A program made the translations under genes and the position numbers. DNA of 35,514 nt from a virus (lineage: Duplodnaviria; Heunggongvirae; Uroviricota; Caudoviricetes). The notes beneath the pieces were generated by a model. It saw only the letters and a list, made by a program, of their open reading frames with translations. It made no database searches and was not told where the DNA came from. Location of the stretch: IMG/VR virus record IMGVR_UViG_2698536443_000010, positions 1 to 35,514 of that record. One strand, given 5' to 3'. Below, piece after piece: positions 4,835 to 35,128 of the stretch (its first letter is position 1; each line of letters begins with the position of its first letter).

Positions 4835-7657
4835 ATGACGGCAGAGTACATCAGGGACTGGCAACAACCGCGCCACGCAGTGGGGCGTGAAGGAACGGGG
4901 ATCCCCGCTCCTGAATCCGCGCTTTCCTCCTGGCTGGATGCCCACCGGGCAGAGAACGAGCGCCGCCAGGAAATGGCTGATGCGGCGTTCTCCGCCACGC
5001 CACTGGGCAACCTGATTAATAAAAGCCTGGACGCACAGGAAAAACAGGACAAAACCATCACACTGGCAGGAGACGCCAGAAAACAGGCACGCGGCGCGGT
5101 GGATGAAGCCATGGCCTCGCTGCGCCTGCTGCCGTCCTATCTGCGCGATCCGCTTATTCGCCACCTCTCCTTCCTGCGCAAAAAACAGGAAGCCGATCGC
5201 CGGAAAGGCAAAAAGAGCTGGCAGGCGGAACGCTATGCACGCGGAACCCTGCGCAAAATATTCGAACGTCTGGATCGCACTGACGGACACTGGCTGACAC
5301 CGGGTTATCGCTCCCTTGCCGGACGCGAACGCCTGGACGATTTGCTTTACCTGCCGCAGCTCAACAAACACCAGATACAGACGCTGGCCACCATGACGGC
5401 GGCGATGTTCAGCAGCACCTTCGAAAAACTCTGCGATGGCTTTGGCGCGACCGATGGCGAACTGACCATGGATGTAACGCTGAAGGCGTATCAGATGCTG
5501 GCCCGCATGGCGTTACACCTGCACATCATGCCTCCACATTATGACGCACTGACAACAGATAAAGACCGGAGGAACGAACCGGACACGGAGCTGCTGCCGG
5601 GCACAATCCTTCGCCTGACCTGTGCGGAATGGTGGAAACGCAAACTGTGGCTGTTACGTTGCGAGTGGAGAGAAGAACAACTCCGCGCCGCCTGTCTGGT
5701 TTCCAGAAAAACATCACCCTATCTGAGCCAGGACGCGTTAAGCGAGTTTCGCGCACAGCGCGAGAAAACACGCGATTTCCTGAAAAGTTTCATGCTGGAA
5801 AATGAAGACGGGTTCACGATTGATCTCGAGACGGTGTATTACGCGGGAGTAAGTAACCCGGTTCACCGTAAAGCAGAAATGATGGCCACCATGAAGGGAC
5901 TGGAACTTCTGGCCGAAGCCCGTGGCGACAGAGCGGTGTTTCTGACCGTCACCTGCCCGTCAAAATACCACGCAACAACGGAGAACGGTCATCCGAACCC
6001 CAAATGGAACGGGGCCACCATGCGCGACTCCAGCGATTACCTGGTTAACACGTTTTTTGCGGCGGTCCGCAAGAAACTGAACCGCGACGGCCTGCGCTGG
6101 TATGGCATCCGCACGGTGGAGCCTCACCATGACGGCACCGTGCACTGGCATATGATGGTCTTTGCTCATCCGGAAGAAATCGACACCATTGTGTCCCACA
6201 CCCGCGATATTGCCATTCAGGAAGATCGTCACGAGCTGGGCGATGACATAACTCCGCGCTTTAAGGCGGAGTATGTAGACGGCTCAAAAGGCACGCCAAC
6301 CAGCTACATCGCCACCTACATCGGGAAAAACCTGGACAGCCGCGCCGTGGATGGCATCGACCCGAAAACGGGCAAGCCACGCGTTGACCACGAAACCGGA
6401 AAATCAATGGCCGAGAGCGTGGAACGCGCCATCGGCTGGGCGCGCCTTCACCGGGTCCGCCAGTTCCAGTTCTTTGGCATCCCCTCCCGCCAGGTATGGC
6501 GTGAACTGCGCCGCCTTGCCAGCCAGATGGCACGCAACCCGGAAGGCCCGCAACGGCTGAAGGATGACGCAATGGATGCGGTTCTTGCCGCCGCTGATGC
6601 CGGATGTTTTGCCACCTACATAGAGAAACAGGGCGGCGTACTTGTTCCACGCAAAGACTACCTGATTCGCACCGCCTACGACCTCGCCGATGAGCTGAAC
6701 GATTACGGCGAACAGAGCGTACAGATTTACGGGATCTGGTCACCACTCATCGGGGAATCCTCCCGTGTGTGCACGCATCCGGATAACTGGAAGCTGGTAA
6801 GACGCAAACCGGAAGCGGAAGACAGCGCCCGCGAAAATGGTTTTGACCTTCAGGGCGGCCCTGCCGCCCCTTGGACTCGTGGCAATAACTGTCCCCGTGT
6901 ACAGGAAACGGACAACAACGGGACAAAACAGCCGGAAGAACGGCCAGCACCGTGGCCGCAGCTCCCTGACGGCGTTGATGTGGATGAATGGATGCGCTCA
7001 CTGAAACGGCACGAACGCCGGGCGCTGATGCGTTCGCTTCGTGACAAACAGGCAAAAAACAGCAGTGATGAAATGCAGAGCTGGACACAGAGCCGCAAAC
7101 AGCAGCGGCCTTTGCCTGATAACCACGAATTACTCGCTAAAGAATGGCGGGAGTCTGCTGAATCTCTCGGTCTGCATATCGGTGAACAACAGATGCAGCA
7201 CCTGTTACGGGGCGGCAGTCTGTACGTTGACGGCAGCATCATTGCACCGCAGGGATTTGAAATTGTACGCAAACCGGATACCCGCCCGGACAGCCGAATC
7301 ACGCAGCTCTGGCAGCGCCTGAGCCGTAATCATGGCGTAAGCAGCACGGAGATCCGCCATAACCCGGTCGCCAGCTATCTGACACAGCTGGGGGCATCAG
7401 ACCCTGAAGCCGCCGCACGCCTGGCATCCACACTTCAGCAGGACCAGAACACCATGAAAACACCCGTTACCGTGCTTTCTGACATGCTGCGCGCCATCCG
7501 CGACGCAGAGCACGCACAGAGAATCAGTGAAACCACTGAACGCGCCAGCCGCAAAGCAGACCTGCTGCGGGGTGGCCTGACCAGTGGAAACAAAAAACAG
7601 ACAGAAACGGGACTCACGAATCCCGTAAATGAGCAAAAAACGCGCAGCGATATATGA
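4835..7657 (+). CDS. A: Replication initiation endonuclease, P2 gpA-like, with long C-terminal extension
   Basis: Central region FLTVTCPSKYHATTENGHPNPKWNG...RWYGIRTVEPHHDGTVHWHMMVFAHP...SYIATYIGKNLD typical of the P2 A rolling-circle initiator; 940 aa. Confidence 0.9.
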   Translation: MTAEYIRDWQQPRHAVGREGTGIPAPESALSSWLDAHRAENERRQEMADAAFSATPLGNLINKSLDAQEKQDKTITLAGDARKQARGAVDEAMASLRLLPSYLRDPLIRHLSFLRKKQEADRRKGKKSWQAERYARGTLRKIFERLDRTDGHWLTPGYRSLAGRERLDDLLYLPQLNKHQIQTLATMTAAMFSSTFEKLCDGFGATDGELTMDVTLKAYQMLARMALHLHIMPPHYDALTTDKDRRNEPDTELLPGTILRLTCAEWWKRKLWLLRCEWREEQLRAACLVSRKTSPYLSQDALSEFRAQREKTRDFLKSFMLENEDGFTIDLETVYYAGVSNPVHRKAEMMATMKGLELLAEARGDRAVFLTVTCPSKYHATTENGHPNPKWNGATMRDSSDYLVNTFFAAVRKKLNRDGLRWYGIRTVEPHHDGTVHWHMMVFAHPEEIDTIVSHTRDIAIQEDRHELGDDITPRFKAEYVDGSKGTPTSYIATYIGKNLDSRAVDGIDPKTGKPRVDHETGKSMAESVERAIGWARLHRVRQFQFFGIPSRQVWRELRRLASQMARNPEGPQRLKDDAMDAVLAAADAGCFATYIEKQGGVLVPRKDYLIRTAYDLADELNDYGEQSVQIYGIWSPLIGESSRVCTHPDNWKLVRRKPEAEDSARENGFDLQGGPAAPWTRGNNCPRVQETDNNGTKQPEERPAPWPQLPDGVDVDEWMRSLKRHERRALMRSLRDKQAKNSSDEMQSWTQSRKQQRPLPDNHELLAKEWRESAESLGLHIGEQQMQHLLRGGSLYVDGSIIAPQGFEIVRKPDTRPDSRITQLWQRLSRNHGVSSTEIRHNPVASYLTQLGASDPEAAARLASTLQQDQNTMKTPVTVLSDMLRAIRDAEHAQRISETTERASRKADLLRGGLTSGNKKQTETGLTNPVNEQKTRSDI
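7605..7629. repeat. 25-bp dyad-symmetric element, copy 1 (aaacgggactcacgaatcccgtaaa), inside the 3' end of A
   Basis: Arms acggga / tcccgt separated by 8 nt; 21/25 identical to copy 2. Confidence 0.7.
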
Positions 7658-7677
7658 AGCGCGCACAAAACAGGCAA

Positions 7678-7702
7678 AAACGGGATTTCAGAATCCCGTA
7701 AA
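7678..7702. repeat. 25-bp dyad-symmetric element, copy 2 (aaacgggatttcagaatcccgtaaa), upstream of parM-like gene
   Basis: Same dyad arms; lies 32 nt upstream of the parM-like start. Confidence 0.7.
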
Positions 7703-7733
7703 CGATTAATTAATCAACATAAGGAAAAGCGAC

Positions 7734-8693
7734 ATGAAAATTTGTATCGACGACGGCTCCACCAACATCAAGCTGGCATGGACTGAGAACGGCGAACGCC
7801 GCAACGCCATCAGCCCGAACAGCTTCAAGTCGGAATGGTCTGCGCCGTTCGGTGGCACGCAGCCCGCGAACTACATGCTTGATGGCGTGCGCTATGGTTT
7901 TGATCCGGTCAGCGATCGCTTTGTCCAGACGACCGACACGCAATACCAATACAGCGATGTGAATGTCATTGCCATTCATCACGCGCTGGTCAAATCAGGC
8001 ATCACACCACAGGAGGTGGATGTGGTTGTCACCCTGCCACTGAGCGAGTATTTCGACACAAACGCACAGCCGGACATGGCCAACATCAACCGCAAAAAAG
8101 CGAACGTTATGCGCCCGGTGGAGTACCAGAACGGCGAAGCATTCACTATCCGTAACGTGCGGGTTATGCCTGAATCCATTCCGGCTGGCTTTAAGGCACT
8201 GGCTGACATGAGTCCGTTTGAATCCCTGCTGATTGTGGATTTGGGCGGAACCACGCTGGATGTGGCAAAGGTTCAGGGGCAACTGGCAGGTATCAGCCAG
8301 GTGTTTTGCGATCCACACGTAGGCGTTTCTCTGATGGCCGATGCCGTACTGGCGGTGATGGCCACTAACGGTATGCGCACCAGTCACCACATCGCCAATA
8401 CCATTATCGAACATCGCCATGATGAAGCCTGGCTGCGCCAGCACATCCACAATGACGCGCATTACGCCAGCCTGATGGCGGTTATTCGTGAAAAGGAAGA
8501 AACACTGAAACAACGCGTGATCCGCGCGCTGGCGGTTTTTTCGGGTTACGGGCGGGTGATGGTTGTCGGTGGAGGGGCGGAGATTGTGGCACCCGCTATC
8601 CGCGAAGCCTGCGGAGTTAATGCGACTTTCATCGCGGACGGGGTGCCACAGTTTGCTCTGGTTAATGGGCTGTACGCAATGGACAAGGAGTAA
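7734..8693 (+). CDS. parM: Actin-like segregation ATPase, ParM/StbA family
   Basis: MKICIDDGSTNIKLAW...YSDVNVIAIHHAL...VMPESIPAG...LLIVDLGGTTLDV...VMVVGGGAEI matches conserved ParM blocks of plasmid R1 as recalled. Confidence 0.85.
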   Translation: MKICIDDGSTNIKLAWTENGERRNAISPNSFKSEWSAPFGGTQPANYMLDGVRYGFDPVSDRFVQTTDTQYQYSDVNVIAIHHALVKSGITPQEVDVVVTLPLSEYFDTNAQPDMANINRKKANVMRPVEYQNGEAFTIRNVRVMPESIPAGFKALADMSPFESLLIVDLGGTTLDVAKVQGQLAGISQVFCDPHVGVSLMADAVLAVMATNGMRTSHHIANTIIEHRHDEAWLRQHIHNDAHYASLMAVIREKEETLKQRVIRALAVFSGYGRVMVVGGGAEIVAPAIREACGVNATFIADGVPQFALVNGLYAMDKE

Positions 8694-8697
8694 ACCA

Positions 8698-9009
8698 ATG
8701 ACGACACCAACCAGACGGATAAGTTTCTATCTGAAGCCTGCGGCCGTCAAGAACGAAAGCGAAGCATGCGCCTGGCTGGACAGCCTTACACCAGAAGCCC
8801 GCAAAAGCGGCCAACGCGTGGCTTTTCTGGCCGGGCTGGCACTTCTGAAAATGAATCCAGCAGAGGCTTACCGACTGGCTGCATGGGCTGACGATGAGGC
8901 GTTATCAGTGACACAAACCAGGACAGAATGCCCCGCGTCACAGCCAGTATCAACCGCACAGATAACCAGTCAGATGGCCGGAAATATCCGGGCATTATTT
9001 CCCGAATAA
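8698..9009 (+). CDS. parR: ParR-like adaptor candidate
   Basis: Immediately downstream of parM with AAGGAG RBS; RRISFYLKP...AGLALL...RALFPE resembles R1 ParR as recalled. Confidence 0.55.
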   Translation: MTTPTRRISFYLKPAAVKNESEACAWLDSLTPEARKSGQRVAFLAGLALLKMNPAEAYRLAAWADDEALSVTQTRTECPASQPVSTAQITSQMAGNIRALFPE

Positions 9010-9014
9010 CACAA

Positions 9015-9038
9015 CATCAGGGCGCATCCGCCCTGATG
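9015..9038. terminator. Hairpin downstream of parR-like gene
   Basis: Inverted repeat atcagggcg / cgccctgat with 4-nt loop; weak T tract. Confidence 0.4.
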
Positions 9039-9107
9039 ACTTTAATCCGGGAACATAAACAAGGGGGACAAAATGCAACACATTGACAGAGAAAAAGGAA
9101 AAAAAGC

Positions 9108-9326
9108 ATGAACAGAAAACAGAAACAAGAGTTGAAATACTTCTTACGTAAAGAAATTGCCAGGCTTGAAGATGCAGAGTCACAATCATCAGAAATTCCG
9201 TTCGGAATGGATATCAACGACGCCCGTATGCTTCAGGCATACCGTATAGCTCAGGCTGCACTACAGACAAAACCGTTAAATAACATACATGAAAAGTATG
9301 ATTATTTTACGGATACCGCTTGCTGA
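9108..9326 (+). CDS. Hypothetical protein
   Basis: 72-aa ORF in the A-to-cos accessory region. Confidence 0.4.
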   Translation: MNRKQKQELKYFLRKEIARLEDAESQSSEIPFGMDINDARMLQAYRIAQAALQTKPLNNIHEKYDYFTDTAC

Positions 9327-9511
9327 CATCTGAAGAACAAAAGATAGCCCAACTTTTAGGCGACGCATGGAACCTGTATTTAACATTGCCAGTTGAGCAT
9401 CCAATGGGTAGAGATGAATTTTGCCGGGCAATTCATCATTGCCAAAATATGATGTTGGCACGCCCGGCCATCAGGACGCTGGCCAGGAAGGGGCAAGGCT
9501 ATAAAAGATAA
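9320..9511 (+). CDS. Hypothetical protein
   Basis: 63-aa ORF; followed by a terminator hairpin. Confidence 0.35.
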   Translation: MLTSEEQKIAQLLGDAWNLYLTLPVEHPMGRDEFCRAIHHCQNMMLARPAIRTLARKGQGYKR

Positions 9512-9514
9512 GTA

Positions 9515-9544
9515 AAACGCCCTCCTCCATGGCGTTTATTTCAA
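9515..9544 (+). terminator. Rho-independent terminator
   Basis: Stem aaacgcc / ggcgttt with 9-nt loop, followed by tttattt. Confidence 0.6.
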
Positions 9545-9995
9545 TGCACAATAGTGCACAAATTTGCACAATTTTTTTGAACGACTTTTTGCCCTTCCGG
9601 CCCGCGTTGCGGCTGGATCCGTCAAGGATCCGTGCGTGCACAAAAAAACGCGCTTTTTCTGCGCGCAGGTGACGGGGGAACAGCCCGCGTTTCAGGGGGT
9701 AAATAGCATTCCCTGAACGATGTCGCAGCGACACAACAGAATGGCTGTATTTCTCACGCTGAGCGTGAAAAAGGCGTGAGGGCTTTTGATTTGATGGGGT
9801 GAAAGGTAAGGCCGTCAAAATCGCACTGAGGCGGCGAGAACATACAGTCAACGCGGTGGGATTGCGTAAGAGTCTGACCGTCGATGGTGGCGATAAACTG
9901 GAAGGCGTCGTGAAATTATCTGACTGATACAGGAGCTGGAGAGTCGGGGCATAAATTTTTTATGCCCCGGCGAAGCAGCAGACAAGCGAAGCGCG
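9545..9995. other. Non-coding region expected to hold cos and packaging signals (exact cos not identified)
   Basis: Position between the accessory region and portal Q as in P2; palindromes at 9722..9732, 9754..9768 and 9945..9969. Confidence 0.4.
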
Positions 9996-11042
9996 TCAGG
10001 ATGTGGGCTGGGTGTCTAACAGTGCGTAAGGGTTAAAGCGGATCACCTCTTCGCCAAGCCAGTCATTGATGTGCTTCATGGCCTCCATGACGGGCATCAG
10101 CTCGTTAATTGCGTAAACCCGCGCAGCCTTCTCCACATCACCAAACGCACTTTTTTCGCCCGGCATCGCCCCCATCAGTTGCGGCGGAACGCGGTGCGCA
10201 GCCAGCACATCATCACGGGATGCCGCCTTAACATTCATGAACTCATCCTTTGCGGTGATCTGCTGGAACGGCAAAATTTGCACCCCCTCTTTGCCCCCGT
10301 TGGGCGCATGGATGAGCACGTTTTTAAACGCACCACCACCACGCGCACCCTGTAACGTTTCTTTCAGGGAGTCCATGCTTTCGCGGTTTACCTGCGCTGC
10401 ACCGATGTAGATGATGCACCCGGCGTGGGATCCATTGTCGTAATACAGTTTTCTGAACATGTCCGCCGAATGAGACAGGCTGGCCGAGAGTAATGCGCCA
10501 AGATATTCCGGCATGCCGTAAATTTCCTGGTTAATGTCCGGATTCATCAGGTGGCACACTTTGCCAGGGCGAAACTGAAACGCGTCCTTGCCATCCTGCA
10601 CATACCACCATGATTCAAGATCGCTTCCGCGTCGCATGTATTTCGCCAGTGCGTGCCGTAATTTAAGTGGTTCGCCGAGCATATTGCTCCGAAGCTCAAG
10701 GAATGCGTTACCGAACACAAACCAGTCCAGCGCCAGCGCCGAGAAATCCTGCCGGGAAAGCAGCGGGTGCGGGATGTAGCAACCGAGCAATACATTGCGC
10801 TTAAAGTAAAGCGCAGACTGATGCCAGGACGTTTGCCGGGCGGCTCTTGCCAGACCGTACCAGTCCACCGGGGTTTCATACCACCGCCCGTTATCAGCAC
10901 AGTACATATTGTCCAGCAGGTCATGCCCGGTCAGGCGATAAGGACCATCAAATGTGAATGCACTGAGCGATGATTCTTTCCTGAGCGCATCAGCGAGATC
11001 AATGCGTGAACTCATGCGCACTTTTTTATTTTTTCTGCTCAT
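9996..11042 (-). CDS. Q: Portal protein, P2 gpQ-like
   Basis: 348-aa ORF immediately downstream of terminase P on the same strand; ATGA-type overlap with P. Confidence 0.9.
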   Translation of the reverse strand: MSRKNKKVRMSSRIDLADALRKESSLSAFTFDGPYRLTGHDLLDNMYCADNGRWYETPVDWYGLARAARQTSWHQSALYFKRNVLLGCYIPHPLLSRQDFSALALDWFVFGNAFLELRSNMLGEPLKLRHALAKYMRRGSDLESWWYVQDGKDAFQFRPGKVCHLMNPDINQEIYGMPEYLGALLSASLSHSADMFRKLYYDNGSHAGCIIYIGAAQVNRESMDSLKETLQGARGGGAFKNVLIHAPNGGKEGVQILPFQQITAKDEFMNVKAASRDDVLAAHRVPPQLMGAMPGEKSAFGDVEKAARVYAINELMPVMEAMKHINDWLGEEVIRFNPYALLDTQPTS

Positions 11043-12793
11043 CAGAACTCCATAACCGTGAAACGCTCGTTTTCTCCTTCGCCGCCAATCGGTTCGTTAA
11101 TGACAGCAAGCATGGTTGCCCACGCAAGGTCGCCGTGGCTGATCCCCCTCGCTCGGTCCGTTTCGTAAGTGATAAAGCCGCCCGGTGTTTTCACCTTACG
11201 CACGGCGTTAAAGGCCGCGACCAGCTCGCGTTCGGCGCGATCGTATTCCCACCGCCCGGCACGCATTATTTGCAGCATTTTCAGTGCCAGCGACCGTTTT
11301 GATGACAGCGTGAAGGTGTACGGAATAGCAGCAGGGAAAAACCGCTTCACTATCTGATAAACAGCCTCCCCGTTCCCGCCCGTCACATCAATGCCGATGT
11401 GTTCCACGTTGTAGCGATACGTGAACTCTTCAATGACTCTGGCCTGCTCTTCAAACTCCAGCCCCTGAACGCGTCGAGTCTCCACCGTTCGAAAACGGCC
11501 ACCAGGAACAGCCGGAGGAACCACAACGGACACAGCGCCGCTGTCGCCGTTGCCACTACTGCCGTTTGCGTCATACCCAATCCATACCGGACGATTCCCC
11601 ATCGGTCGGGGAGCAAAAGGTTTCCAGTCTTTCCAGTCGTCGTATCCGTCAACACCGCAGCCAATCAGGATATTCAGGTTAAATGCCGATTCCCCTTCGC
11701 GGACAAACTCACACATATAGAGATTGAGGAACTCGTCTTCGGTGTTTTCATCACGAATTTCGTCGATATCGGTGTGTTTCCAGCCGTGATTAACCACATC
11801 TTCCAGCGTGACAATTTGCCGCCACGTCCGGTCAGGGCAGATAAGCCTGTTATGCAGCGTTTTCCAGTCCACAGAAAAACGCTGGCGTTTATGCGAGGCC
11901 TTTTTCTCGTTCCAGCGGTCGCCATTCCAGTAGGCGTATGCCTCGTGCGTTTCGGTGGATGGCGTGGAGAAGTAGGTGCGCCGCAGTCCGCTGAGGGTTG
12001 CCATAGCGCCAGCCACCTTGCGCAGTTCAGCAAAGCGACTGACCCAGAAAAATTCATCAAAATAAAAATTGCCCGTATAGGACTGTGCCGACGCAGCAGA
12101 AGTGCCGAGAAAATGCAGCTCTGCGCCGTTGGAGAGGATGATTTTATCGCCCCCTTTCAGCTCCACATCAACTTCAGCCGCGGCCTTCTGAATAATGCTT
12201 TTAAACTGGAACGCCTGACGACGCGACGCAGACAAAAAAATCTGGTTACGCTGGTAAGGTTGCGCCACATCGTCACGCAGCGCCATCAGCAGCGCTTCCT
12301 GTGCAAAATACCAGGTCGCCCCAATCTGTCGGGATTTCAGGATCATCCTGTTACGTATCCCGGCTTCCCTGCAAAGGGTCAGGGAGTCAAACCAGCCCCG
12401 CTGATGCCACTCCAGCCTGCTGATGATTTTTTCCCGCAGTGCGGCAATCTGTTCCGGCGTGAAATGATTTTTGAGTTTTTTCGCCCGGCCTTTCTTTCCT
12501 GCGGCCATCACATCCGGCTGGCCATCATGCAGCTTTTTAAGCTGCCGGGTCAGCAGGTCTATTTCCTTAAAGTCACCGCCTGTTTTATTCTGTTTTTCAG
12601 TAAGCTGGATGAGGCGCGCATCGATGGACTGCGTGACACGCTGCACGGGTGGCGTTTCATCCCACTGGTCACGTTTTTTCCACGCATAAATCGTGTTCGG
12701 GTTTATTCCCATCAGACGTGATATTTCTGCGGGCGGATAACCCTGCCAGTAAAGTTGCCGCGCACGCTGGCGCACAAAAGCGTCCTGAATCAT
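11042..12793 (-). CDS. P: Terminase large (ATPase) subunit, P2 gpP-like
   Basis: 583-aa ORF divergent from O; N-terminal MIQDAFVRQRARQLYWQGYPPAEISRLMGINPNTIYAWKK HTH-like region. Confidence 0.9.
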   Translation of the reverse strand: MIQDAFVRQRARQLYWQGYPPAEISRLMGINPNTIYAWKKRDQWDETPPVQRVTQSIDARLIQLTEKQNKTGGDFKEIDLLTRQLKKLHDGQPDVMAAGKKGRAKKLKNHFTPEQIAALREKIISRLEWHQRGWFDSLTLCREAGIRNRMILKSRQIGATWYFAQEALLMALRDDVAQPYQRNQIFLSASRRQAFQFKSIIQKAAAEVDVELKGGDKIILSNGAELHFLGTSAASAQSYTGNFYFDEFFWVSRFAELRKVAGAMATLSGLRRTYFSTPSTETHEAYAYWNGDRWNEKKASHKRQRFSVDWKTLHNRLICPDRTWRQIVTLEDVVNHGWKHTDIDEIRDENTEDEFLNLYMCEFVREGESAFNLNILIGCGVDGYDDWKDWKPFAPRPMGNRPVWIGYDANGSSGNGDSGAVSVVVPPAVPGGRFRTVETRRVQGLEFEEQARVIEEFTYRYNVEHIGIDVTGGNGEAVYQIVKRFFPAAIPYTFTLSSKRSLALKMLQIMRAGRWEYDRAERELVAAFNAVRKVKTPGGFITYETDRARGISHGDLAWATMLAVINEPIGGEGENERFTVMEF

Positions 12794-31688: not shown

Positions 31689-32324
31689 TTAGCGAGCTAA
31701 TATATTCAAAGAATTTAACAATTGAGTGTCGAGTGTTTCAGTTGCAGGAATCGGTAATCCATTCGCAATGCGGTAATTTTTCACAGACAGCCTTGTGGAT
31801 GGCCCCATTATGCCGTCAATATTTCCGTTATAAAATCCCCTGTCCAGCAATGCGAACTGAACTCGCATAATCAATCGCTTACGTTTCTCTGCATCAGAAG
31901 CAAGCCCATTACTCGTACGGTTAACCTCTGAAGTTCCAACAGAACTCGTGTTAGTGGTTCTATTATTATCGTTAGAACGAAGTGCACGCACCGAGGAAGA
32001 GGACGATGAGGAACTTGCACCTGAACTTGAAGAACCAGATGAACGTGGTGAGCTGTATGTTTTTGGATAATAGGGGGTACTTCCACCATAGTATCCACCA
32101 CCTGATGAGGATCTATGAGAGCTATGGCTCCTATGAGAGCTATGGCTTCGATGCCCTGCGATATAAAATGGGACTTCCGTGTTAAGTGGAGCTATCACTA
32201 AATCATGCTCATTAAGAGTCATACCAGGTAAATCACTCGCTCCTGTAGATGAATCGCTTGCCCATACAGAATTGTTGAGAGCCAAAAATCCCGGAAGTAG
32301 AGCAGCAAAATTAAACTTTTTCAT
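31689..32324 (-). CDS. hxsA: His-Xaa-Ser repeat protein (HxsA-like): signal peptide, HRS/HSS repeat tract, Ser/Gly-rich linker, peptidoglycan-binding-like C-terminal domain
   Basis: MKKFNFAALLPGFLALNNSVWA signal peptide; HRSHSSHRSHSSHRS; C-terminal LIMRVQFALLDRGFYNGNIDGIMGPSTRLSVKNYRIANGLP; ATGA overlap with upstream radical-SAM gene. Confidence 0.7.
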   Translation of the reverse strand: MKKFNFAALLPGFLALNNSVWASDSSTGASDLPGMTLNEHDLVIAPLNTEVPFYIAGHRSHSSHRSHSSHRSSSGGGYYGGSTPYYPKTYSSPRSSGSSSSGASSSSSSSSVRALRSNDNNRTTNTSSVGTSEVNRTSNGLASDAEKRKRLIMRVQFALLDRGFYNGNIDGIMGPSTRLSVKNYRIANGLPIPATETLDTQLLNSLNILAR

Positions 32325-33433
32325 AAAATTGGTCTCGGTGATTGATGAAAACGGCCTTTTGAGGAACTGAAATAGCCAGCACAGGAAGGCTTCTGAGTAC
32401 ATTCATCACATTCTTTTGGATAGTAATTTTTCCAATCAGAGATCGACTGAACAGCAAGCTCCCTAGCCCTTTCAGGAAGATAACACAAAGGATAATTAAA
32501 AATTGTCAGAGGTATGCCTGACCTGTATGCAGCGTCTATGGCAGAGATTATTTTCTCACTATAACTACTGTGATCAATGAAGATGGTGGACCAGTTTTTT
32601 CGTGCCCAACCGATAGGCTCCAACCCCATAAGGGAAATCTGATTGATGTTGGAGAACACACGGCCAGCGAATTCTACAATATCATCCAATTCGGTATAGT
32701 TAGCCAGTGTAGGAATAACTCTAAGTTCGATATTAATCCCCAAGTTTCCTGCATTGATTAACCCTTTAACCGTTTCATTAAATGCGCCATCACTCCCTAC
32801 CAGATGATCATGCACAAGTGGTCTTGATGAGTAGAGCGGGATACCAAAGGTGATTTTGATCTTTTTGCTTCGCTTTGCCATTTCCTGTGTAAAGTTGATA
32901 TCAGCAAATTTGCGTCCGTTTGTTAAAACATGTAAAGCAGTATCTGGTGAATTCTCGATGATAAAATCAATGAAGTGAAGGAAGTCATCCCCATATAGCA
33001 AAGGTTCACCACCGCTGACCCCAACAACTCCGTTCAAGCCAAATGAAGCTATAGCAAGAGCTGATTGGGTAAGTAGCCAGTCATCATTTATTTTCTTTGG
33101 TGGCTGCGAACAAAACAGACACAAGTTATTGCAGCGTTCCGTAACTAAGACAGTATTATGATTGGCTTTGCGTGACAGAATAACGCGTATCATATTGCCA
33201 TTGTTGATTATCCCAATATCTCCATCTTCAATTGACTCAAATAATTCAGTGCTAATAACAGAGAAATCAAAGCATGGTGGAATGGCATCATTATTGCCTT
33301 CAGCAACTACTAGCAAATTGGGCAAAAAGAATAAAGGGTTCACTGGTTTTTGTTTGCATAACCGATAGAACCCCGTGGGCACGTTCTCTGTAGAAGCAAA
33401 ATGAAAGATATCGTTCCTGATAACCTCAGACAT
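32321..33433 (-). CDS. hxsB: Radical SAM enzyme with SPASM-like C-terminus (HxsB-like maturase; B/C assignment tentative)
   Basis: CNNLCLFC (CX3CX2C), GGEPLL motif, C-terminal Cys cluster CDECTQKPSCAGYF. Confidence 0.75.
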   Translation of the reverse strand: MSEVIRNDIFHFASTENVPTGFYRLCKQKPVNPLFFLPNLLVVAEGNNDAIPPCFDFSVISTELFESIEDGDIGIINNGNMIRVILSRKANHNTVLVTERCNNLCLFCSQPPKKINDDWLLTQSALAIASFGLNGVVGVSGGEPLLYGDDFLHFIDFIIENSPDTALHVLTNGRKFADINFTQEMAKRSKKIKITFGIPLYSSRPLVHDHLVGSDGAFNETVKGLINAGNLGINIELRVIPTLANYTELDDIVEFAGRVFSNINQISLMGLEPIGWARKNWSTIFIDHSSYSEKIISAIDAAYRSGIPLTIFNYPLCYLPERARELAVQSISDWKNYYPKECDECTQKPSCAGYFSSSKGRFHQSPRPIL

Positions 33434-34814
33434 ATGCCCATCCTTTTAGCATCTCAGCCTTCGAACCACCCTCTGAGATGCAGTTCATCAGATACCTGAA
33501 CATCCCCTTGTGATATTGACAAAACGTTGAACGACTCCTATCACCGACAGGCTCACCCTGTACACTTATGTTCTGGCATGGATCTGAACCACAAAATGGT
33601 TGATATGCACATGTATCACAACCTGGCAGAGCAAAATTGAACGATGAACTCAATACTGCGTTATAGTAAGGACTATCAGAAAATGATAGCGTCTTAACTT
33701 CACCCGCACTGAACTCCGTTTCAGGATTCACCTTCTGCAACATACGGCTCTCATCGCTACCATATACTCGACCGTCATAATTGAAAAGAATACTGTTAAG
33801 CACGACTCCACTTGGAGACTTTAAATCCGCATAACCACTAAAACCGGGATTGAAGATCCTTTTCAGATGAATGGAGGCCGAATGTTCCACAACCCTTATC
33901 CCTTCATTATTAATCTTAAGGATTTCATCTATCAACGAGGCATAGAAGCTGAAGTATTCGTCCATAGAAAAGGTGAAAGAAGCTTTTTGTGCAAACCCAT
34001 AGGGACTAACAGGTCGGATAAACATGTCCTTGAGACCAAGAGACAAGTGAGCCTGAACAATCGATTCAGGACGTTTGATAAGCTCTTTAGTAACTGTAGT
34101 AACCGTTGCAACGCGGCCAGCACCTAAAGAGTGTTTGATAGCCTCTACCCCTGACACTGTTCTACTGTACGCAAGCCCACGACCAAGAATTCGATTACTG
34201 TTGTGAACAACTTCCTCACCATCAAGCGACACAGAGAACGTTATGTTCCGGTCTCTCGACCATTCAATCATATCCTCATTCAAGACGGACAGACTTGATG
34301 CCACCACCATCTCAAAATTGGTTCTTCCCAGCGTTTCAGCACATTGATCATAGATGCTCTGAATTAAATCAAACCGCAAGAGAGGCTCCCCACCCTGTAT
34401 CTCTATTTTGTAAGGTGGCGTTGATAGTTTTTTAATAGCCGAAATAATATCGGGGATGAGCTCAGGATTTAGGTCGTAACCTGAGGCATTAACAGAAGCT
34501 CTACTAACCTGGCAATACTTGCATGTATGGTCACAACGTAATGTGGGTACAATCATGAAAATTGGCCTGACAGCCAGTTCATTCATCAATCGTTTTGCAA
34601 AAGCAGAACTTAAAGCATAGGGAGTTATAGCAGATGAGCTTTCACTGGTTATGAAAAGCTTACTTTCTAGCACGTTTGATTGCTCCGAACTAATTCGCTC
34701 ATCAGAAAGATCAATAAGGTCTTGCTCACCAATGAAATGATGAAAACCTGCAAGGTTGCTTATAAACACCTGTCCATTAGGCAATCTGTCAAAATTAAAT
34801 GGCATCAATTCCAT
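33426..34814 (-). CDS. hxsC: Radical SAM enzyme with SPASM-like C-terminus (HxsC-like maturase; B/C assignment tentative)
   Basis: CDHTCKYC (CX3CX2C), GGEPLL motif, C-terminal CDTCAYQPFCGSDPC. Confidence 0.75.
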   Translation of the reverse strand: MELMPFNFDRLPNGQVFISNLAGFHHFIGEQDLIDLSDERISSEQSNVLESKLFITSESSSAITPYALSSAFAKRLMNELAVRPIFMIVPTLRCDHTCKYCQVSRASVNASGYDLNPELIPDIISAIKKLSTPPYKIEIQGGEPLLRFDLIQSIYDQCAETLGRTNFEMVVASSLSVLNEDMIEWSRDRNITFSVSLDGEEVVHNSNRILGRGLAYSRTVSGVEAIKHSLGAGRVATVTTVTKELIKRPESIVQAHLSLGLKDMFIRPVSPYGFAQKASFTFSMDEYFSFYASLIDEILKINNEGIRVVEHSASIHLKRIFNPGFSGYADLKSPSGVVLNSILFNYDGRVYGSDESRMLQKVNPETEFSAGEVKTLSFSDSPYYNAVLSSSFNFALPGCDTCAYQPFCGSDPCQNISVQGEPVGDRSRSTFCQYHKGMFRYLMNCISEGGSKAEMLKGWAYV

Positions 34815-35128
34815 TATGAAAGCCTCTCATCAACACTGCGAAGCACTTTATGGACAATAGAGTCTCTCAACGCCCCTGTTTTATGCTGTAGCTTTTCTCG
34901 CAAAGAGTAATCATTAAGCAGCCTATCGAATTCATAAAGGAATTTGGGATTATCGTTTTCAAAAGAGATTATCCAGTGGGAAACGTCTTCATGGAGTTTC
35001 CATCGAGTAAGCGGAGTCATCCAATATAGACTATTGCGTATAACCCATTCAGAATATAGTTCTTTCTCAAACACTCTTTCGCTCATTGCAATTATCTTCC
35101 AATACAAATATTCATGATCAGCAACCAC
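34814..35128 (-). CDS. hxsD: HxsD-like small protein with LLNDYSLRE motif
   Basis: FDRLLNDYSLREKLQ matches the LLNDYxLRE signature; first gene of the operon; start uncertain (GTG 35128 or ATG 35086). Confidence 0.65.
   Translation of the reverse strand: MVADHEYLYWKIIAMSERVFEKELYSEWVIRNSLYWMTPLTRWKLHEDVSHWIISFENDNPKFLYEFDRLLNDYSLREKLQHKTGALRDSIVHKVLRSVDERLS

Follow-up and report, generated by a model that had tools for sequence, protein, structure and literature searches.

Two palindromes that flank the stop codon of gene A and precede parM and parR in a P88-like (P2-related) Escherichia coli prophage probably form the cis-acting parC site (centromere) of the ParM-ParR cassette, with ParR as their predicted ligand; possibly they serve as an operator as well. 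The window, i.e., the whole stretch of 35,514 nucleotides analysed here (IMG/VR record IMGVR_UViG_2698536443_000010), carries parMR in the cargo slot between gpA and gpQ of the prophage. We favour parC because the dyads are linked to the cassette, conserved as footprints and adjacent to parM, and because the cassette encodes a DNA-binding ParR. A centromere or operator for the ParMR pair had been one of two options in an earlier sequence-only reading of the window; cassette membership, the conserved islands in Hafnia and the constant distance of 37 nt to parM make it the best-supported reading.

The 25-bp elements AAACGGGACTCACGAATCCCGTAAA (7605-7629) and AAACGGGATTTCAGAATCCCGTAAA (7678-7702) are identical at 21 positions, and their description in that reading, with 6-bp arms around an 8-nt spacer, proved accurate in sequence and coordinates. 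They contain the only two exact ACGGGA-N8-TCCCGT dyads of the window, where the next-best match has 2 mismatches, and are embedded in a 42-nt direct repeat with 81 % identity and 73 bp from start to start (Table 1). The unit conserved across relatives is a 16-bp palindrome, GGGATT-N4-AATCCC; the two palindromes of the window precede the parM start codon by 127 and 54 nt. Dyad 1 of the window has a single arm mismatch, GGGACT, where the majority of relatives have GGGATT. Dyads of the 6/8/6 type occur 16 times in the window for an expectation of 9.9 ± 3.0, thus a lone dyad is ordinary; two dyads no more than 150 bp apart with identical arms appeared in 0 of 300 Markov-1 simulations. Further copies of the palindrome with up to 2 mismatches were not present nearby, and none elsewhere in the window was convincing. 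AA dinucleotides recur with a phase of 10-10.5 bp over 7586-7733 (p about 0.01-0.02 against shuffles), which fits bent DNA.

Table 1 Features of the window from gene A to the portal gene
Feature	Position	Strand	Remarks
Gene A	4835-7657	+	stop codon 7655-7657, between the repeat copies
Gene A C-terminal tail, cassette-specific, ~30 codons	7566-7657	+	similarity to L009-L011, prophages with other cargo, is lost after ...ERA.RKA.LL
Repeat block 1 (42 nt)	7591-7632	.	16-nt A-rich flank, dyad 1 and TAAATGA; within the last gene A codons
Dyad 1	7607-7626	.	ACGGGACT-CACG-AATCCCGT; conserved core 7609-7624, GGGAyT-N4-AATCCC
Variable spacer between the repeat blocks	7633-7663	.	holds the A stop (7655-7657); length kept, sequence not
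Repeat block 2 (42 nt)	7664-7705	.	A-rich flank, dyad 2 and TAAACGA
Dyad 2	7680-7699	.	ACGGGATT-TCAG-AATCCCGT, perfect palindrome (8-bp arms, 4-nt spacer); conserved core 7682-7697, GGGATT-N4-AATCCC
parM leader	7706-7733	+	Shine-Dalgarno AAGGA 7721-7725; nearly invariant in the population
parM, actin-like segregation ATPase	7734-8693	+	Pfam StbA_N (PF06406) 1.8e-82; ParM C-terminal (PF21523) 1e-68
parR, ribbon-helix-helix adaptor	8698-9009	+	Pfam Plasmid_stab_B (PF10784) 1.7e-24
GC-rich hairpin	9015-9038	.	directly after the parR stop; right cassette edge
Portal gene	9996-11042		with gene A (4835-7657), basis for the gpA-gpQ slot

The presence of a ParMR-like pair downstream of A, already suspected from the sequence, was confirmed by Pfam matches to both genes, those of ParM at full length. 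The protein identity of ParM to plasmid ParMs, including the R1 type, is 40-52 %. The parR gene starts 5 nt past the parM stop. Its product belongs, according to profile comparison, to the ribbon-helix-helix family of pB171 ParR (PDB 2JD3, E=8e-18 for the ParR family profile); a single-sequence search against PDB gave no match, hence the family profile was needed. In the allele alignment the N-terminal ~60 amino acids and a C-terminal NI..LFPE tail are conserved around a hypervariable linker, and the N-terminal RRISFYLKP...AFLAGLAL is invariant despite an overall identity of 52-57 %. All ParR alleles adjoin the same dyads. Type II (ParMRC) systems combine a ParM ATPase gene with a downstream gene for a small ribbon-helix-helix ParR and repeated elements at one locus 5' of parMR; all of these are present here. 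The cassette is known as a common cargo of the P2 hotspot, and about one quarter of P2-like phages carry a partition system (PMC9122126). Of 5,426 complete E. coli genomes, about 1,280 have parMR at the A junction. In other relatives the slot is occupied by an AAA ATPase with an S8 peptidase, a Dam methylase with an AAA ATPase, or hypothetical genes.

Comparison with P88-like prophages that carry other cargo after A (L009, L010 and L011) delimited the cassette. Homology ends at about 7555-7565, their A genes finish in unrelated tails, and no dyad was present within 600 bp on either side of their A stop. On the basis of these alignments the left cassette edge lies inside gene A, and the dyads are part of the parMR cassette, not of the A backbone. 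On the right, homology among parMR carriers stops between the parR stop and the hairpin. Cassette edges and the absence of dyads elsewhere leave the dyad region as the only non-coding DNA that moves with parM and parR. This inspection of A 3' ends had been recommended by the sequence-only reading, which named a lack of the repeats in every other parMR-carrying relative as the contrary outcome; Hafnia, Salmonella and E. albertii keep both copies.

A gene-blind scan for the paired motif retrieved 93 IMG/VR contigs, of which 92 were scored. The parM start followed dyad 2 after exactly 37 nt in 91 of these viral contigs, the lone exception being a deletion that truncates parM, and the paired motif spanned 89 bp in 88 of the 92. 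Both cores were perfect in Salmonella, E. albertii and a contig labelled Vagococcus. The Hafnia relative has a ParR with 75 % identity and a parM with 88 % nucleotide identity to the window, while flanking A sequence at the 3' end has only 51-53 % and the spacer between the dyads 48 %. Within this diverged sequence repeat blocks 1 and 2 stand out with 81 % and 86 % identity, close to the value for parM. Both GGGATT-N4-AATCCC cores are exactly 73 bp apart in Hafnia despite offsetting +1/-1 indels in the spacer; dyad 1 reads GGGATT-CATG-AATCCC and its loop holds the A stop codon. In repeat block 2 E. coli and Hafnia share AAAACAGGCAAAAACGGGATTT without a difference, the 16-nt A-rich flanks of the dyads are no less conserved than the palindromes, and the parM leader is kept as CAACATAAGGAAA. 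The informative relatives represent one narrow clade of Enterobacterales with Hafnia as the sole deep comparison: a ParR-based scan with one genome per species yielded only 4 loci, and a second protein search with a divergent ParR query remained confined to Escherichia, Salmonella, Cronobacter and Hafnia. Attempts to add a third deep lineage gave no intact junction, as two candidates were cut inside parM (L016, L018) and another was rich in indels (L200).

Variation within the dyads was tallied over 83 distinct junctions. The arms are nearly invariant, e.g., positions 7682-7687 of dyad 2 are constant bar two single variants, while the loops and the outer pairs carry polymorphisms: 31 junctions differ at loop positions 7689 and 7691, and 34 at outer position 7680. 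At position 7613 T is present in 62 junctions and C, the minority base found in the window, in 20. Every departure from symmetry is one-sided; among the 8 stem positions of each dyad not a single compensatory double change was observed (76-83 distinct junctions). This pattern is typical of a protein site. Against this record the dyads are unlikely to act as RNA hairpins, either as tandem intrinsic terminators on the minus strand that would keep antisense transcription out of gene A or as plus-strand hairpins for processing or stabilising the A-parM transcript. On the minus strand both dyads do resemble terminators, with an 8-pair stem, a 4-nt loop and a following TTTTGCCTGT or TTCTGTCTGT. The predicted stabilities of -9 to -12.7 kcal/mol (z-scores -1.9 to -3.7), the conservation in Hafnia of the A-rich plus-strand flank, which is the U-rich tail of the minus strand, and the G.U pairing retained on the plus strand by most dyad 2 variants point in the same direction. 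The one-sided changes, however, favour opposite strands in the two dyads, since T7613C in dyad 1 is wobble-compatible on the minus strand only, A7680G and C7697T in dyad 2 on the plus strand only. Stems in Hafnia are down to 6 bp and -7.1 kcal/mol, with z = -0.9 for the minus-strand copy 1, and independent hairpins have no need for a spacing of 73 bp held despite indels. The terminator match on the minus strand is weak (4 GC pairs, an interrupted T-run), and read-through from the portal/terminase operon would meet stronger terminator-like hairpins first, at 9666-9648 and 9038-9015; the plus strand is devoid of a U-tract. Rfam families were absent from 7300-9800 at E<=1.

We also regard it as improbable that the palindromes are the operator of a protein other than ParR, a host or another phage regulator, which controls read-through from A into the cargo. 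Helix-turn-helix dimers classically occupy palindromes of this kind, 16 bp long with a 10-bp distance between the half-sites, and the dyads lie between the early operon and the cargo without a recognisable promoter of their own. But the sites travel with parMR between phage backbones that are only 53 % identical and are missing from otherwise near-identical phages with other cargo, which makes a regulator of the phage backbone unlikely. The cassette, moreover, itself supplies a DNA-binding protein, the DNA-reading N-terminus of which is invariant, and to our knowledge no host factor has a GGGATT-N4-AATCCC consensus.

It is very unlikely that the repeat is a functionless scar of cargo insertion, a duplicated A 3' end or a target-site duplication, the second option of the sequence-only reading. 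The 42-nt direct repeat (81 %) does straddle the A stop, and the possible translations of the copies, KKQTETGLTNPVNE and TKQAKTGFQNPVND, are alike. The similarity itself stands, but copy 2 reads TGFQNPVND only in frame +1 relative to A, because 73 = 3 x 24 + 1. Both copies lie to the left of the cargo and so cannot flank an insertion, and neither occurs in A genes that precede other cargo; repeats on either side of the insert with one copy in the uninterrupted target, the mark of such a scar, are not seen. In Hafnia A stops in the loop of dyad 1, thus conservation does not extend to the shared peptide. The arrangement predates the Escherichia-Hafnia split of the cassette, with a fixed spacing while the spacer decays. 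Equally little credit is due to a 26-codon ORF at 7629-7709 (MSKKRAAIYEARTKQAKTGFQNPVND), e.g., a parM leader peptide, as the conserved feature with the repeat as incidental: judged from the sequences, its start, stop and length recur in Salmonella and Hafnia, but no Shine-Dalgarno precedes the ATG in either genus, about 7 of the 26 residues differ between E. coli and Salmonella, frequent polymorphisms (4, 9 and 7 at codon positions 1, 2 and 3) show no third-position excess, stop codons are rare by composition in this T-poor sequence, and the ORF has no Pfam match. A role of the dyads as replication origin or as single-strand hairpin signal for gpA was rejected, as they are wholly missing from closely related A genes that precede other cargo.

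For the parC reading, the following course of events may be proposed. From the sequence comparisons we infer ParR binding, looping, centromere activity and autoregulation. ParR would bind each palindrome as a ribbon-helix-helix protein via two half-sites, the centres of which are 10 bp apart and hence on the same face of the helix. The palindromes, separated by 73 bp or about 7 helical turns, would again present the same face and could be bridged by ParR-ParR contacts, with the spacer of ~57 bp looped out. Such a complex would display the conserved C-terminal tails of ParR, which may capture the ends of ParM filaments. Known type II systems have parC directly 5' of parM, in some cases split around a looped-out middle, and ribbon-helix-helix centromere binders accept inverted repeats, as known from the omega protein (PMC5016525). 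Bound ParR would probably also limit parMR expression, as an operator or a roadblock, at a site between A and parM with neither a plus-strand terminator nor a strong promoter. The operator role is uncertain since no sigma-70 promoter is conserved in the three genera: none reached the scan threshold in 7300-7734, and none of the weak candidates around the dyads is shared by E. coli, Salmonella and Hafnia. GATATA in the spacer was discarded as a conserved promoter element on account of its loss in Salmonella. Several features speak against parC: there are only two sites (four half-sites) where characterised relatives have many direct iterons, simple half-site recognition leaves the conservation of the A-rich flanks unexplained, and palindromes of 16 bp with half-sites 10 bp apart are likewise typical of helix-turn-helix dimers.

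In the literature searched we found no earlier description of the cis site of this cassette, which ranks with the most frequent cargoes of the P2-like gpA-gpQ hotspot. A defined cis site makes the role of parMR in an integrating phage testable. If ParR binds, an R1-family ParR would work from two inverted repeats compared with the ten-iteron array of R1, with a bearing on the minimal size of a ParM-capturing complex. Tentatively, and with considerable doubt, we suggest that a two-palindrome centromere might suffice for R1-family ParMRC and that the integrating P2-like phage might use it on excised or replicating circles, co-transcribed with the early replication operon (as CGP3 AlpACS), or for a temporary plasmid-like persistence. 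If true, this would be a second, non-plasmid role of ParMRC, present in roughly one quarter of E. coli genomes.

Among known systems, ParM and ParR of plasmid R1 belong to the same Pfam families as the proteins encoded here, although the ParR proteins are only ~26 % identical. In R1 the PF10784 ribbon-helix-helix ParR binds parC and its C-terminal tail engages ParM (PMC5016525). The R1 parC is likewise a cis site directly 5' of parM (Dam and Gerdes 1994, via PMC5016525), and its repeated units form two groups around a looped-out middle (PMC5016525), a looping that is proposed here. However, R1 parC consists of ten direct A-rich 11-bp iterons (of the AACCCAAAA type, seen in L026) that flank a clear promoter. 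The prophage has instead two inverted-repeat palindromes of unrelated motif without a clear promoter, the upstream one inside the coding 3' end of a phage replication gene, and the R1-type architecture of about ten direct iterons with one ParR dimer each is absent. A 73-bp offset shared with R1 and IncL/M parC was dismissed as coincidence, as other self-offsets dominate in those regions. The closest solved ParR homologue by profile search, pB171 ParR (2JD3), forms an N-terminal ribbon-helix-helix dimer and assembles into a helical scaffold that wraps parC (PMC5016525). Its DNA-reading strand is RKKYTLYLHP versus TRRISFYLKP here, thus the prophage ParR should recognise another target sequence.

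The nearest phage-borne ParM outside the P88 group, 48 % identical, is that of the P1-like phage-plasmid D6, which also has parR 3' and repeats 5' of parM. D6 is a true plasmid prophage, and its upstream repeats are direct, contain CTCA and form three clusters without a GGGATT palindrome. A precedent for a palindromic parC is the cParCMR of Clostridium botulinum, a chromosomal, non-plasmid ParMR cassette as here, with three palindromic repeats bound by ParR in EMSA (PMC12270681). It stems from an unrelated Firmicutes lineage, its parC is drawn after parR and not 5' of parM, and it is not described as prophage cargo (PMC12270681). The Corynebacterium prophage CGP3 combines an actin-like filament, an adaptor and upstream DNA repeats (AlpC, AlpA and alpS; PMC4446434, PMC5539076). 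AlpA is not homologous to ParR, and alpS differs from a palindrome pair in being a short repeated TTAAnnG motif, of which the test DNA had seven repeats. The Alp system is induced early and needed for efficient replication and transport of the phage DNA (PMC4446434, PMC5539076), and AlpACS can serve as functional model for a possible role of ParMRC in a prophage.

The window represents a P88-like (Xuanwuvirus, P2-related) temperate phage, and across the studied region it shares 95-99% identity with phage P88 and relatives. The sequence-only reading had placed two 25-bp dyad elements, identical at 21 of 25 positions, one before and one after the A stop codon; the dyads, their positions and their identity were confirmed. 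Only two sites in the window fit ACGGGA-N8-TCCCGT without mismatch, one in each copy of a 42-nt direct repeat whose copies are 81% identical and begin 73 bp apart; the dyad of copy 2 forms a perfect 8+4+8 palindrome, and the stop codon falls between the copies. Single 6/8/6 dyads are not unusual (16 in the window versus about 10 expected); a same-arm pair within 150 bp was obtained in 0 of 300 simulations. Between 7586 and 7733, AA dinucleotides recur with a 10-10.5 bp phase (p about 0.01-0.02 versus shuffles), which suggests intrinsically curved or bent DNA. The proposed function as centromere or operator gained good support from comparison among relatives, and the dyad pair is a well-supported putative site of this type.

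Features of the window and their nucleotide identity to the Hafnia P2-like phage
Feature	Position	Strand	Identity to Hafnia (%)
Integrase and HTH repressor	left end of window		
Replication gene A	4835-7657		
A 3' end			53
Segment upstream of repeat block 1	7556-7590		51
Repeat block 1	7591-7632		81
Dyad 1	7607-7626		
26-codon ORF	7629-7709		
A stop codon	7655-7657		
Spacer between repeat blocks			48
Repeat block 2	7664-7705		86
Dyad 2	7680-7699		
Leader			75
parM (R1 family)	7734-8693		88
parR	8698-9009		75
Hairpin	9015-9038		
Second variable segment	9040-9990		
Portal and terminase genes	9996-12793	minus	
Right-end stretch	31689-35128	minus	

The sole deep comparison was with a Hafnia P2-like phage, whose ParR is 75% identical. 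Both of its copies carry GGGATT-N4-AATCCC, spaced at 73 bp despite offsetting +1/-1 indels in the spacer; neither retains the outer AC/GT pairs found in E. coli. Two perfect cores were also present in Salmonella, E. albertii and a Vagococcus-labelled contig; in a Cronobacter copy, dyad 2 is altered on one side. When IMG/VR was scanned for the paired core irrespective of genes, 93 contigs were returned. The pair spans 89 bp in 88 of the 92 scored contigs, and the parM start codon lies exactly 37 nt past dyad 2 in all of them except one with a deletion truncating parM (91/92). Among 83 distinct junction sequences the dyad 2 arms are nearly invariant, loop positions 7689 and 7691 and outer base 7680 vary in 31-34, and position 7613 of dyad 1 is mostly T, the window carrying the minority C. 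The same deletion, which joins parM from about codon 16 to the terminase gene (junction AAGCTGGCATG|TCGCCGTTGCC), was observed in one E. coli chromosome and one IMG/VR contig (L012, 3458-3600; L177, 6300-6500), and each retains both dyads. Assemblies labelled Vagococcus sp. (L019) and Fredinandcohnia humi (L021) carry parR near-identical to the E. coli type, probably through contamination.

The gpA-gpQ slot is a known cargo hotspot of P2-like phages (PMC9122126), and the parMR cassette is already known as its cargo: Rousset et al. reported "a putative plasmid partitioning system" in about one quarter of these phages, with no description of a centromere (PMC9122126). Positions 6700-8300 were searched against 5,426 complete E. 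coli genomes. The A-parM junction was found in about 1,280, nearly always chromosomal, as were P88-like prophages with homology ending about 840-855 nt into the query; of 1,778 locations in E. coli genomes, only 2 were plasmid-borne. Three loci (L009, L010, L011) have other cargo after A, namely AAA ATPase and S8 peptidase, Dam methylase and AAA ATPase, or hypothetical genes. The A genes of these loci follow the window as far as ...ERA.RKA.LL (about 7555-7565) and continue into unrelated tails; no dyad occurs in the 600 bp before or after their stop codons. At the right-hand end, parMR carriers share homology up to the parR stop or the hairpin. These limits define a mobile unit of about 7566-9040, comprising the A tail, two repeats, leader, parM and parR, with the repeat region as its sole non-coding DNA. 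By this comparison the dyads belong to the parMR cassette and not to gene A.

The left boundary of the slot lies inside gene A (7555-7657), and the last approximately 30 codons are cassette-supplied, giving the replication protein a cargo-specific C-terminal tail that is evidently dispensable, judging from these relatives. At the right edge, the GC-rich hairpin (CATCAGGGCG-CATC-CGCCCTGATG), 6 nt past the parR stop, scores as terminator-like on the minus strand. The second variable segment, between parR and the portal gene, holds different genes in relatives; small ORFs at 9108-9326 and 9320-9511 had no Pfam match. The right-end stretch encodes two neighbouring radical-SAM proteins (370 and 462 aa), a peptidoglycan-binding-domain protein and a 104-aa ORF, and may be a further cargo locus or flanking host DNA. 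A 34,461-bp circular sequence deposited as an E. coli plasmid (L202, NZ_CP148288.1) is a complete P88-like phage genome with all structural genes as well as integrase, Cox, repressor, A and parMR. Over 7560-9100 it and the window are 99.5% identical; the sequence could represent the phage in a plasmid state or after excision.

ParR, of the R1 family like ParM, is the likely trans factor for the dyads. It belongs to PF10784, and the family profile matches the structure of pB171 ParR (2JD3, E=8e-18), a ribbon-helix-helix centromere binder. Several alleles were compared (the window's own; L007, 4501-4815; P0028, P0031, P0056), which are 52-57% identical overall with a hypervariable middle and share an invariant N-terminal RRISFYLKP...AFLAGLAL and a C-terminal NI..LFPE tail, predicted to bind DNA and ParM, respectively. 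The same dyads adjoin all alleles; ParM beside divergent alleles is 98-99% identical, and the breakpoint of recombination falls within parR, about 55 nt from its start.

The most serious alternative is that the dyads act as an RNA hairpin or minus-strand terminator. Both are terminator-like on the minus strand, where a T-rich tail is conserved, and fold at -9 to -12.7 kcal/mol. However, no compensatory double changes at stem positions occurred across the junction sequences. The frequent one-sided changes are inconsistent as to strand, since those of one copy allow wobble pairing on one strand and those of the other copy on the opposite strand. The Hafnia stems are weaker (6 bp), the dyad spacing is conserved, stronger terminator-like hairpins lie further downstream on the minus strand, and Rfam gave no match. 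The palindromes may instead be an operator for a protein other than ParR, but a phage-backbone factor is unlikely as the sites travel with the cassette. The 26-codon ORF (MSKKRAAIYEARTKQAKTGFQNPVND), which overlaps the A end and reads through dyad 2, has equal length in Salmonella and Hafnia, but without Shine-Dalgarno sequence or sign of coding constraint it is not supported as a conserved feature. A duplicated A 3' end or insertion junction, earlier proposed from similar peptides in both copies, was rejected, and an insertion scar is likewise not supported; the Hafnia A stop codon lies inside the dyad 1 loop, thus the TG.TNPVN peptide is not conserved.

As a centromere, the site would bind ParR dimers on both half-sites of each palindrome, the half-site centres being 10 bp apart. 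With seven helical turns between them, the palindromes share one face of the helix, so that a bridge of ParR could join them with the spacer looped out. This complex would capture ParM filament ends via the ParR tails; the AA phasing fits bent DNA. Neither a plus-strand terminator after A nor a sigma-70 promoter conserved across three genera was found, thus parMR may be expressed by read-through from the early operon and restrained by bound ParR. Speculatively, read-through would make parMR active after infection or induction, a timing like that of AlpACS in the Corynebacterium prophage CGP3. Interest would be greater if the site functioned as a minimal centromere, or if the DNA of the lytically growing phage were acted on by the system.

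Related plasmid and phage-plasmid systems differ from the cassette in the N-terminal ParR strands and the upstream repeats. In an R1-type system (L026), two clusters of A-rich 11-bp direct iterons surround a TTGACT...TAAACT promoter, whereas the P1-like phage-plasmid D6 has CTCA units; lineage-specific parC motifs are thus the norm. Looping of the spacer would resemble that described for split parC sites. Both inverted and direct repeats are bound by ribbon-helix-helix partition proteins (PMC5016525), and a palindromic, EMSA-verified parC occurs in the chromosomal ParCMR of C. botulinum (PMC12270681). The cassette site is set apart by its few sites and inverted symmetry, and a palindrome pair partly embedded in a replication gene would represent a new variant of parC.
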